A DNA stretch of 64,000 nt from Escherichia virus TH38, in sequence record MT446410.1; one strand, given 5' to 3'. Every line of letters starts with the position of its first letter. The stretch's first letter is position 1. Position numbers and translations under genes: made by a program. Below, piece after piece: positions 956 to 3,891 of this stretch. Below the pieces are notes generated by a model. The model did not search any database. It saw only the letters and a program-made list of their open reading frames with translations, and was not told the origin of the DNA.

Positions 956-2014
956 ATGGCTAATCCAACTTTATTTGTATCGTATGACCAGAATGGTAAA
1001 AAACTTTCTTTTGCTAACTGGATTTCTGTTCTGTCCCCTCAGGATACCCCGTTCGTATCTATGACCGGTAAAGAGTCTATCAACCAGACTATCTTTAGCT
1101 GGCAGACCGATGCACTGGCAAGCGTTGACGGTAATAACGCACACGTCGAAGGCTCTCGTGCTGAAGACGGCGAAATGAAACCGACTGTTATCAAATCTAA
1201 CGTTACTCAGATTCTGCGTAAGGTTGTTCGTGTTTCTGATACTGCTAACACCACCGCTAACTACGGGCGTGGTCGTGAACTGATGTATCAGCTGGAGAAG
1301 AAAGGTAAAGAGATCAAGCGTGACCTCGAGAAAATCCTTCTGTCCGGTCAGGCTCGTACCGATGTTCTGGCTGACCAGTATCTGACTAACTCGGCAACTG
1401 ATCCTGCTGTTGTTGGTCTGAATGACACCCATGCAGCTCGTAAGACTGGTGCATTCCAGTTCCTGTGTGCTCACGGTGGTCTGGCTGGTGGCGTTGTTGA
1501 CAAGACCAAGAATGGTCCTGCTGACCCGGATACTGGTGCAGTAACTGTTAAAGTTGCACAGAATGCTTCTAACCCGACCACTAACATTGGTTTCGACGAA
1601 GCTGATATCTTTGATATGACTCTGCAACTGTATACCGCTGGTTCTGAAGCAGATATCATCATGATTAACCCGGCTCATGCTAAGATCTTCGCTGGTCTGC
1701 AAGAAAATACTCAGGGTTCACGTAAGCGTATCTTTGAGAACACCAAGCAGTTCATCTACGAAGTTAACAGCATCACTGACCCGCTGGGCCAGAGCTACAA
1801 AATCATCGTTAACCGTTGGATGCCTACTGATGCAGTTTACTTCTTCCGTAGCGCTGACTGGACTCAGATGGTTCTGCGTGCTCCGAAACGTACTGAACTG
1901 GCTAAAGACGGTTCTTACGAGAAGTGGATGATTGAAATGGAAGTTGGTCTGCGTCACCGCAACCCGTATGCTTCCGGAGTTCTGTTCACTGCTGCGGGAA
2001 AGGTGGTGGCGTAA
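956..2014 (+). CDS. major capsid protein
   Basis: 352-aa ORF with RBS aggag upstream; position after scaffold; followed by in-phase Ig-like extension and strong terminator. Confidence 0.8.
   Translation: MANPTLFVSYDQNGKKLSFANWISVLSPQDTPFVSMTGKESINQTIFSWQTDALASVDGNNAHVEGSRAEDGEMKPTVIKSNVTQILRKVVRVSDTANTTANYGRGRELMYQLEKKGKEIKRDLEKILLSGQARTDVLADQYLTNSATDPAVVGLNDTHAARKTGAFQFLCAHGGLAGGVVDKTKNGPADPDTGAVTVKVAQNASNPTTNIGFDEADIFDMTLQLYTAGSEADIIMINPAHAKIFAGLQENTQGSRKRIFENTKQFIYEVNSITDPLGQSYKIIVNRWMPTDAVYFFRSADWTQMVLRAPKRTELAKDGSYEKWMIEMEVGLRHRNPYASGVLFTAAGKVVA
1996..2002 (+). promoter_or_regulatory. candidate -1 programmed ribosomal frameshift slippery heptamer G_GGA_AAG
   Basis: X_XXY_YYZ heptamer in capsid zero frame 12 nt before capsid stop; -1 frame is open from 1936 to 2538. 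Confidence 0.55.
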
Positions 2015-2538
2015 CAGTAGACAGTGTGACTGTTAGCCCTGCGTCTTTAGCAAGCCTAGAGACAGGGGCTACTCGGCAGTTCACTGCAAGCGCGGAGAAA
2101 AGTGATGGTTCTACCGAAACAACTGGCTTTACTTGGTCAGTGACAGGAGGTGGTTCTATCACTCAGTCGGGTTTGTATACTGCTCCGAGTGCGTCTCAAT
2201 CCACTGATGTATCCATTACTGCAACTTTAGAAGGTGTTTCTGGTACAGCAACAATTTCAGAAATTGTTGCTCCTGCTCCTACTATTGTAGCTAAGGGTCC
2301 TATTACGGGTAAAACTGGTGGTTCCTCCACTAATTTCACTACCATGTTTACTGTAACTAACTCTGCTGCTGCGGATTACACGTTTGTTGTAACTCCTAAA
2401 GAAGCCGGTACAGTAAGCGCCGCTGGTGCGTTAACCTTAGATGCTGCTGCAAGTGGCGAAGTTACTGTTCAAGCAAGTTTGACAGCTGACCCGTCCATCA
2501 ATGCAACATGCACTTTTACTGGTGTAACACCTGCTTAA
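2002..2538 (+). CDS. capsid C-terminal Ig-like (BIG2-type) extension, expressed as capsid fusion after -1 frameshift
   Basis: -1 frame open through 2538; translation is Thr/Ser/Ala/Val-rich with Ig-like beta-strand pattern; listed ORF 2026-2538 begins at GTG with no RBS at proper spacing. Confidence 0.55.
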   Translation, partial: GGGVTVDSVTVSPASLASLETGATRQFTASAEKSDGSTETTGFTWSVTGGGSITQSGLYTAPSASQSTDVSITATLEGVSGTATISEIVAPAPTIVAKGPITGKTGGSSTNFTTMFTVTNSAAADYTFVVTPKEAGTVSAAGALTLDAAASGEVTVQASLTADPSINATCTFTGVTPA

Positions 2539-2545
2539 AACTAGA

Positions 2546-2569
2546 CCCTGCCTTCGGGCGGGGTTTTTT
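2546..2569 (+). terminator. rho-independent terminator after capsid module
   Basis: Stem CCCTGCC/GGCGGGG with TTCG loop followed by TTTTTT. Confidence 0.75.
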
Positions 2570-2597
2570 CGTTTTAAGACCTATACAAGCCAGTGTG

Positions 2598-2639: not shown

Positions 2640-3152
2640 ATGGCAATGCCAGATTTCAGAGGAGCTTTTACATATAACCCAAATACAGGGCATCTTTTCT
2701 GGTCTATGAGTAATATATTCAATAAACAGAAAGGGCAACGTGCTGGATGTATTAATAATAAGGGATATCGTGTACTAACCTTCAAGAAGAAATCATACCT
2801 AGAGCACAGGGTCATAGCTGAACTCTTTCTTCCTAAAGTAGAAGGGAAGGACTATGTCAACCATAAGAATGGAATAAAAGATGACAACAGGATTGAGAAT
2901 CTAGAGTGGTGTACTCAACAAGAAAACTGTGTACATGCTTATGAAACAAAACTCTCAACACCAAGGAATCTTGAGGATAACCCTAATTCCAAGCTTACTA
3001 AAGAACAAGTTCTTTTCTGTTTAGAGAACTATAAACCGAGGGACAGACAGTTCGGAGCTAGAGCTTTAGCTAGGAAGTTTGGAGTCTCTTCAAGTACAAT
3101 AAGCCTGATAATCAATGGCACAAACTGGAAGGAGGTATCCTATGTTGCCTGA
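2640..3152 (+). CDS. HNH homing endonuclease (HNH_3-type)
   Basis: Motifs GYRVL, YLEHRVIAE, VNHKNGIKDDNRIENLEW; RBS aaggagg; inserted between capsid and tail genes. Confidence 0.8.
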   Translation: MAMPDFRGAFTYNPNTGHLFWSMSNIFNKQKGQRAGCINNKGYRVLTFKKKSYLEHRVIAELFLPKVEGKDYVNHKNGIKDDNRIENLEWCTQQENCVHAYETKLSTPRNLEDNPNSKLTKEQVLFCLENYKPRDRQFGARALARKFGVSSSTISLIINGTNWKEVSYVA

Positions 3153-3891
3153 CGTTCAATACCCCATCAATACCTATGGGTGGCTAAAGAAGGCCGTGGC
3201 CCTCTGGGCAGATAGGGACGATGACGAATTTGTTAATCAAATTCCAAACTTTATTAACTTTGCAGAGAAAGAGATTTATCGTAACTTACGTATTCCTCCT
3301 CTGGAAAAAGAAGTGTATTTAGATATTAAAGATGGAGTAGCTTACATTCCTCCTGATTACTTAGAAGCTCAATGGATGATGAGAGCCAAAGATGGCACAA
3401 TCTTCCAAGTAACCTCTCCTGAAGAGATTAGCTATCGTAGACAGCATGGAACAATTAACCCATCTCACTGGAATAACCAACCTGTCAACTTTGCTCGTTT
3501 CGGTAGTCGTTTCATTTTCTACCCTAGCATCGAAGCAGATACTCCGTACTACCCTGATGATGGAAGCCCTTTGATTCCAGCAGAAAACTCAGTGATTCTT
3601 AGCTATTATGCAGACCCACCGGAATTCCATGAAGATACAGATACTAGTACTATTCTTACTATAGCACCAGAACTTCTTCTGTACTTCACCCTACGTCATG
3701 CTTGTCTCTTTGTTCAAGATGATAATGGTGTTCAGAAATGGTCAGCATTAGGAAAAGCTATCCTTGATGAAATGGTAGAACAGAATAAGAAACAAGAGTA
3801 CTCAGGTTCACCTATCGCAATTCCGAATAACATGACTCGACTTCAGAGCAGCTTGCCTGATATTTATGGTATTCGTACTTCTCGTGTATAA
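3142..3891 (+). CDS. virion structural protein (possible adaptor/tail tubular protein)
   Basis: Start moved to ATG 3142 with RBS ggaggt; position in structural operon; no recognisable catalytic motif. Confidence 0.45.
   Translation: MLPDVQYPINTYGWLKKAVALWADRDDDEFVNQIPNFINFAEKEIYRNLRIPPLEKEVYLDIKDGVAYIPPDYLEAQWMMRAKDGTIFQVTSPEEISYRRQHGTINPSHWNNQPVNFARFGSRFIFYPSIEADTPYYPDDGSPLIPAENSVILSYYADPPEFHEDTDTSTILTIAPELLLYFTLRHACLFVQDDNGVQKWSALGKAILDEMVEQNKKQEYSGSPIAIPNNMTRLQSSLPDIYGIRTSRV

Follow-up and report, generated by a model that had tools for sequence, protein, structure and literature searches.

The major capsid protein (MCP) gene of Escherichia virus TH38 ends inside a second open reading frame, which is shifted by -1 and encodes Ig-like sequence. 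The question raised by this locus is whether the second frame is a gene of its own or the C-terminal part of a longer capsid protein. The initial annotation, made from the letters alone, had proposed the latter: a programmed -1 ribosomal frameshift that fuses the MCP to an Ig-like domain, in an arrangement like that of T7 10A/10B. We analyzed the locus in the window, which is the whole stretch of 64,000 nucleotides taken from record MT446410.1 (coordinates in Table 1).

The window contains a Kuravirus (phiEco32-like) capsid module. This assignment is based on nucleotide identity, on Pfam matches to SU10_MCP and SU10_adaptor and on the gene order of annotated records. Among the Kuravirus genomes (Escherichia podophages), the stretch 900-2600 is 99.0% identical to EK5, 98.3% to phiEco32 and 98.0% to SU10. 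The MCP reading frame matched Pfam PF17236 (SU10_MCP, E=9e-77) and PHROG 1328 (major head protein), and its amino acid sequence is 99.7-100% identical to the MCPs of phiEco32 and DE5. A scaffold gene lies upstream of the MCP gene. Downstream of the MCP/Ig region follow an HNH endonuclease gene (2640-3152), a SU10-type adaptor gene and a gene for a 926-aa tail fibre. The HNH gene sets the window apart from phiEco32, SU10 and EK5, which do not have it there.

Table 1. Features of the capsid locus, with positions counted from the first letter of the window
Feature	Position	Strand	Details
MCP gene, zero frame	956..2014	+	352 aa, 38.7 kDa; HK97-fold SU10_MCP family
Slippery heptamer G_GGA_AAG	1996..2002	+	phased in MCP zero frame; read from sequence
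Zero-frame TAA stop of short capsid form	2012..2014	+	read from sequence
-1 frame extension	2002..2538	+	178 codons plus TAA; from translation
GGG linker, then predicted Ig-like domains 1 and 2	domain 1 about 2011-2265; domain 2 about 2275-2535	+	
Hairpin 1 (GGC.UAACAGU / ACUGUUA GCC)	2008..2038	+	5 nt past heptamer; candidate frameshift stimulator
Stem-loop 2	2026..2084	+	20 bp, 59 nt; 23 nt from slip site; contains GTG 2026
Intrinsic terminator ending capsid transcription unit	2543..2576	+	stem 2543-2566, then T-run

The 3' end of the MCP gene reads ACT GCT GCG GGA AAG GTG GTG GCG TAA. The slip codons in the MCP frame are GGA (1997-1999) and AAG (2000-2002), and three sense codons (V V A) stand between the heptamer and the TAA, AAG being the fourth codon before the stop, as had been read in the initial annotation. 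The motif GGGAAAG itself was found 8 times on both strands of the window versus 7.4 expected. Because this count is at chance level, it is no evidence in itself, and the weight is put on phase, position and conservation. Among the 352 codons of the MCP gene, the copy at 1996-2002 is the only in-frame X_XXY_YYZ heptamer. What goes beyond chance is the combination of a sole in-frame heptamer, its closeness to the stop, the 178-codon open -1 frame and conservation down to 57% MCP identity. G_GGA_AAG is also among the heptamers that are highly shift-prone in E. coli (PMC5009743). No Shine-Dalgarno-like stimulator of the kind found upstream of the dnaX site was visible in 1975-1995.

The -1 frame is open over exactly the range that had been claimed for it: after a TGA at 1933-1935, it runs from 1936 to the TAA at 2536-2538. 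Past the slip site its translation reads GGGVTVDSVTVSPASLASLETGATRQF..., and this extension matched PHROG 13745 ('Ig domain containing protein') with E=2e-80. Pfam Big_2 (PF02368) matched at 2017-2250 with 24.6 bits against a gathering cut-off of 22.8, a small margin that concerns domain 1 only. Domain 2 gave no match in the Pfam search and is therefore Ig-like by fold only. The extension was modelled with AlphaFold2 from an alignment of 22 sequences, with homologues taken from the protein database. The model is all-beta, with a mean pLDDT of 96.7 and two domains (residues ~4-88 and 92-178). Its top PDB match in Foldseek was the tandem Big_2 structure of Leptospira LigA (8gyr, E=3e-11, TM 0.58). 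The model was also matched to pb6, the tail tube protein of T5, to the phi29 prohead (entry 6qvk) and to chains from structures of the SU10 tail and virion (7z4f, 7z4b and 7z47). In the model, the extension forms two Big_2-type Ig-like domains in tandem. The Ig-like fold that had been suggested thus stands, but the single domain of ~170 aa gives way to two predicted domains within 178 aa.

The locus was then compared among 14 annotated phages and 11 IMG/VR contigs. GGGAAAG is present in the same phase in phiEco32, EK5, MN05, Bas87, Bas92, KBNP1711, EP335 and the contigs L015-L019. It is also present in Proteus phage Privateer and Cronobacter phage CsaP_009, whose MCPs are 57% identical and whose C-terminal codons differ. 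Among the relatives carrying GGGAAAG, the heptamer lies zero to five codons from the MCP stop. The extension past the slip site varies in length among the relatives (169, 178-180, 372 and 455 aa), and that of Privateer is a different pair of Ig domains. The slip signal is retained while the extension cargo changes. The Aeromonas-type relatives (L020-L023 and phage 4_4572) carry G_GUA_AAG, with a GC-rich hairpin, at the same place and appear to reach their Ig extension through this non-canonical site.

If the Ig-like frame were a separate gene, it would start at GTG 2026 and encode a free decoration protein of 170 aa. Many records, most of those in GenBank, do annotate a 170-aa CDS at this GTG. 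The -1 frame has no ATG, GTG or TTG before it, and the first ATG comes at 2344. However, none of GGAG, GAGG and AGGA was found in the 20 nt before GTG 2026 (GTGGCGTAACAGTAGACAGT), so the codon is indeed, as had been noted, a sole start candidate without a Shine-Dalgarno sequence. The AAGGTGGTGG past the slip site was considered as a Shine-Dalgarno sequence for this GTG and rejected, as the spacing of ~16-19 nt is too long. The GTG is also base-paired within stem-loop 2, the most stable of the local RNA folds. Residue 9 of the extension is the one encoded by this GTG, and domain 1 as modelled enters its first beta-strand (residues 6-12) before that point.

The relatives point the same way. Their amino acid sequences are conserved (GKGGGVTVDSVTVSPAS...) from the slip site on, before any start codon is reached, and the stretch conserved there reads GK-GGG-VTVDSVTVSP. 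The start codons move or vanish, yet this upstream peptide is kept. The first -1 frame start is an ATG 35 codons past the heptamer in EP335 and a GTG 62 codons past the heptamer, inside a domain, in Privateer. KBNP1711 and Bas87 have -1 frame starts only upstream, inside the capsid gene. Taken together, the moving start codons, the conserved upstream peptide and the early beta-strand argue against independent initiation.

Protein data from the relatives bear on the same question. In the cryo-EM paper on SU10, gp10 is treated as what may be a minor capsid protein of its own (PMC9509320). Against this, mass spectrometry of SU10 listed 38.5- and 55.4-kDa forms, the latter as a CDS9+10 entry (PMC4281155), and Privateer showed two capsid bands on the gel together with mass spectrometry (PMC7881722). 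With these results, we consider it quite improbable that the Ig-like frame is a gene with its own start.

The capsid frameshift is not new, as it is already described for Kuravirus-like phages. In SU10, GGGAAAG was noted in CDS9, with a predicted fusion to the Ig-like CDS10 'as in phage phiEco32' (PMC4281155). In Privateer the frameshift is annotated, and the paper on that phage adds that phiEco32 and SU10 had been seen to make both products (PMC7881722). According to the YF01 paper, the slippage is shared by the Kuravirus-like group, in which long forms reach up to 892 aa in total, and the extension of YF01 itself has about 540 aa (PMC9965538). All three papers (PMC4281155, PMC7881722, PMC9965538) cite phiEco32 (2008). 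More generally, frameshifting that adds Ig-like domains at the C-terminus recurs in phages, for example in T3, A2 and Listeria phages (PMC5009743).

With a probability of about 0.9, we conclude that a programmed -1 ribosomal frameshift on G_GGA_AAG yields a minor long capsid subunit in this phage, both products being known from the literature on its relatives. The comparative evidence that fits it is threefold: the relatives keep the slip site, differ in the extension cassette, and share protein sequence from the slip site on. The frameshift fusion that had been put forward therefore holds up, in that its structural elements are present, the comparative evidence fits and the proteomics of relatives report both products.

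By this mechanism, most ribosomes would read GGA AAG GTG GTG GCG TAA and terminate there, which gives the 352-aa major capsid protein. A small minority would move one base back on the heptamer, with tRNA-Gly shifting from GGA to GGG and tRNA-Lys from AAG to AAA. From there, the shifted ribosomes would continue in the -1 frame with GGT GGT GGC GTA ACA... and stop at the TAA at 2536-2538. In the resulting protein, capsid residues 1-349 would be followed by a Gly-Gly-Gly linker and the two tandem Big_2-type Ig-like domains, with the predicted junction ...TAAGKGGGVTVD..., and it would co-assemble as a minor capsid subunit. The computed fusion has 527 aa and 55.6 kDa (short form: 352 aa, 38.7 kDa), which agrees with the long capsid variant of ~56 kDa that had been anticipated. 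The predicted extension peptide GGGVTVDSVTVSPASLASLETGATR begins upstream of GTG 2026.

In lambda G/G-T, the identical heptamer G_GGA_AAG, which is read by E. coli ribosomes, is not known to depend on a strong downstream structure, so a stimulatory element may not be strictly necessary. Its shift rate is cited as about 3.5% in PMC9965538. By analogy with this heptamer, the shift efficiency at the capsid site is probably a few percent. As the SU10 head contains 715 MCP copies (PMC9509320), such an efficiency would put a few tens of subunits with Ig domains into each virion. By comparison with other phage Ig-like domains (PMC9965538, PMC5009743), the domains are presumably displayed on the outside of the head and may help the virion to adhere weakly to carbohydrates or to cell surfaces. 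The lambda gene differs from the capsid gene in that it is a tail assembly chaperone gene, whose product is no virion component and has no Ig domain.

The closest known systems are phiEco32 gp11/gp12, SU10 CDS9/CDS10 and YF01 gp8. They belong to the same gene family and have GGGAAAG at the same codons, followed by the GGG linker. The two-domain extension of phiEco32 closely matches that of the window. Nothing substantial sets the window apart from these systems; the linker shows one synonymous difference between the window (GGT GGT GGC) and the phiEco32 group (GGT GGC GGC). Privateer has a SU10_MCP-type capsid protein (57% identity), GGGAAAG, an Ig-like -1 extension of ~170 aa and a terminator after it. 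It differs in that its heptamer abuts the stop codon, its extension domains are not alignable with those of the window, and it belongs to the family Grimontviridae. Salmonella phage 7-11 has a related capsid family (56% identity) and likewise a short form and a long form with a C-terminal extension. In this phage, however, each form has a gene of its own (313 and 585 aa), and the long form is an in-frame fusion without a slip site.

As in the arrangement proposed here, T7 10A/10B and T3 gene 10 use a -1 frameshift close to the 3' end of the capsid gene to make a minor, longer subunit. The slip site of T7 gene 10 differs from G_GGA_AAG. No T7-like phages were found among the listed tblastn matches to the MCP. 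The extension of T3 is Ig-like, whereas that of T7 is not (PMC5009743). The T7-like arrangement named in the initial annotation is thus kept as a functional analogy, and membership of the T7 family is not claimed.

The main value of these results lies in annotation. Most deposited Kuravirus genomes, the closest ones included, list the Ig frame as separate or hypothetical, and among the compared records only Privateer has a joined capsid CDS. The long capsid form is also a natural display scaffold, and the relatives exchange its cassette freely (169 to 455 aa in those sampled). This bears on how phages adhere to surfaces or mucus and on the engineering of capsid display on prolate phages. What is added here to the published record is small, namely hairpin 1, stem-loop 2 and G_GUA_AAG in the Aeromonas-type relatives.

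The extension could also be a dispensable relic or a frame that is not expressed here, with the heptamer kept only for the capsid C-terminal Gly-Lys. SU10 speaks for such a reading, since this phage is viable although its open -1 frame has been lost (PMC9965538). In the deposited SU10 sequence we confirmed an insertion of 1 nt, owing to which the -1 frame ends after 11 codons, whereas that of the window stays open, and PMC9965538 places the stop in the SU10 record 39 nt downstream. The SU10 cryo-EM reconstruction has no extra capsid density (PMC9509320), and according to PMC9965538 the long-form band was absent on SDS-PAGE in that study. The closed frame would explain the missing density and band, and it also means that the long form is dispensable in the laboratory. 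In addition, the relatives Vp_R1, APT65 and L024 have neither the heptamer nor the extension.

On the other side, the 178-codon frame is intact here, and the open frame is intact in all other sequences of the Kuravirus group that were examined except SU10. Substitutions among the relatives keep a well-folded two-domain protein. The nucleotides of the heptamer are invariant despite synonymous Gly and Lys codons, while the neighbouring codons vary. We therefore regard a relic or an unexpressed frame as highly improbable and retain the programmed frameshift.

Slippage during transcription is typically seen on homopolymer runs far longer than those present here. A fusion made by RNA polymerase, with one base deleted in the mRNA, would have the same protein outcome as ribosomal slippage, and both mechanisms are known in phage genes (PMC5009743), but the longest runs at this site are three G and three A, and the heptamer is a perfect ribosomal slip site in the correct phase, which makes this origin of the fusion extremely improbable.

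RNA folding downstream of position 2002, which had been suggested as a check on the frameshift, gave two structures (Table 1). The one next to the slip site, hairpin 1, folds weakly (-10.8 kcal/mol, z = -1.95). It is pairable in 9 of 9 distinct relatives, with 94% of cells paired, and Privateer and L020 have hairpins beginning 6 nt past their own sites. The covariation test on the nine distinct relatives showed no compensatory change, so hairpin 1 cannot be called a proven stimulator. The power of the RNA covariation tests is limited by the IMG/VR search for diverse relatives, which yielded 11 loci.

A stem-loop that includes the slip site itself (CTGCTGC...GGCGGCGG) was proposed for SU10 (PMC4281155). 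We folded the equivalent stretch 1985-2030 and rejected it, as it was no better than shuffled sequence (-11.2 kcal/mol, z = -0.66).

Stem-loop 2 is the stronger fold, with -27.8 kcal/mol and z = -3.5; the homologous stretch reached z = -5.3 in Bas87 and -4.1 in EP335. It is also the RNAalifold consensus, and 98% of its cells are paired across eight distinct sequences. Three pairs are changed on both sides, and the covariation score was 0.200 versus 0.108 for shuffled alignments, with 0 of 500 shuffles reaching it. This covariation is suggestive, as the sequences are related and the independent events few. Hairpin 1 and stem-loop 2 both use positions 2029-2035 and are mutually exclusive. It is possible, though rather doubtful, that stem-loop 2 is an undescribed functional RNA element of the capsid mRNA. 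Such an element might act as a switch that tunes frameshifting, or might block internal initiation of free Ig domains. An Rfam scan of 1900-2700 gave only sub-threshold chance matches, mostly over the terminator, and none at the slip site or at either structure.

The terminator past the Ig frame, which the initial annotation had called strong, was confirmed as such. Its stem has 10 bp, 6 of them G-C, with the loop UUCG, and folds at -19.2 kcal/mol (z = -3.7), with none of 200 shuffles as good. Only its coordinates changed, from 2546-2569 to a stem at 2543-2566. The SU10 record has an annotated terminator at this place.

The Ig-coding region contains a second RNA structure, a stable 20-bp stem-loop that buries GTG 2026, the first start codon of the Ig ORF in the -1 frame. 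It is kept among the relatives, and both sides are altered in three of its pairs. This stem-loop and hairpin 1, the hairpin beside the slip site, cannot form together. No mention of it was found in the publications consulted.

The capsid genes of Aeromonas phage 4_4572 and of four relatives from IMG/VR (57-66% MCP identity) end with CTG AAG GTA AAG GCG/CCC TAA. They have no canonical heptamer, and G_GUA_AAG lies in the zero frame at the place homologous to the slip site. Their -1 frames encode Ig-like domains (92 or 171-173 aa; sequence GKGVSAPTGVTVSP...), these frames lack an SD-preceded start, and a terminator-like hairpin with a T-run follows. In L020-L022, three of the IMG/VR loci, a GC-rich hairpin starts 6 nt 3' of G_GUA_AAG. 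G_GUA_AAG may act as a non-canonical slip site in these phages. The Ig-like -1 ORF of 4_4572 is annotated in its record as a 75-aa 'tail protein'.

Coordinates of features at the capsid loci of TH38 (window) and its relatives (each locus in its own numbering)
Feature	Locus	Position	Remarks
Stem-loop, 20 bp	window	2026-2084	within Ig-coding region; -27.8 kcal/mol, z = -3.5
HNH_3 endonuclease ORF, 170 aa	window	2640-3152	between capsid terminator and adaptor gene
1-nt insertion, SU10 (KM044272)	L001	about 2625-2640	ACACTGTCTACTG vs ACAGTGTGACTG
-1 frame Ig region, Aeromonas phage 4_4572	L007	3912-4190	
-1 frame Ig region, four IMG/VR relatives	L020-L023	3912-4433	
Two tandem capsid genes, Salmonella phage 7-11	L006	1982-4758	short 313 aa; long 585 aa
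Three tandem capsid paralogues, Aeromonas phage APT65	L008	1069-3927	
A_AAA_AAG and -1 extension, IMG/VR UViG 3300033688_000038	L025	3920-4055	heptamer in zero frame, one codon upstream of capsid stop

Other capsid arrangements were also observed. The long gene of Salmonella phage 7-11 is a capsid with the extension fused in-frame, and because neither capsid gene of this phage carries a slip site, the same two products are reached via gene duplication. Three tandem paralogues occur in APT65. The heptamer of L025, an IMG/VR contig, is dnaX-type and is followed by just 42 aa of -1 extension.

In the SU10 record, one nucleotide is inserted 25-30 nt downstream of the slip site. The -1 frame is therefore closed after 11 codons, in agreement with PMC9965538, and the Ig ORF is shifted into the capsid's own frame, 3' of TAA and TAG. 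Either the loss is genuine or the inserted base is a sequencing error.

In GenBank, the Ig ORF has a CDS of its own in nearly all deposited Kuravirus-group genomes, with inconsistent starts: either a GTG adjoining the stop or, as for SU10, KBNP1711 and EP335, an internal ATG. Among the relatives' records, a joined CDS was found only in Privateer. The PHROG 1328 profile ('major head protein') has 583 positions, of which the short MCP matches only 6-308.

Downstream of the capsid terminator, the end of the HNH_3 ORF overlaps the adaptor ORF (3115..3891). At the corresponding place, phiEco32, SU10, EK5 and MN05 lack the HNH_3 ORF; of 85 related records, 10 carry it, including TH06 (99.8%), XT32, XT18, IME267, MLP3 and PAS59. 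This ORF is apparently a mobile homing endonuclease.
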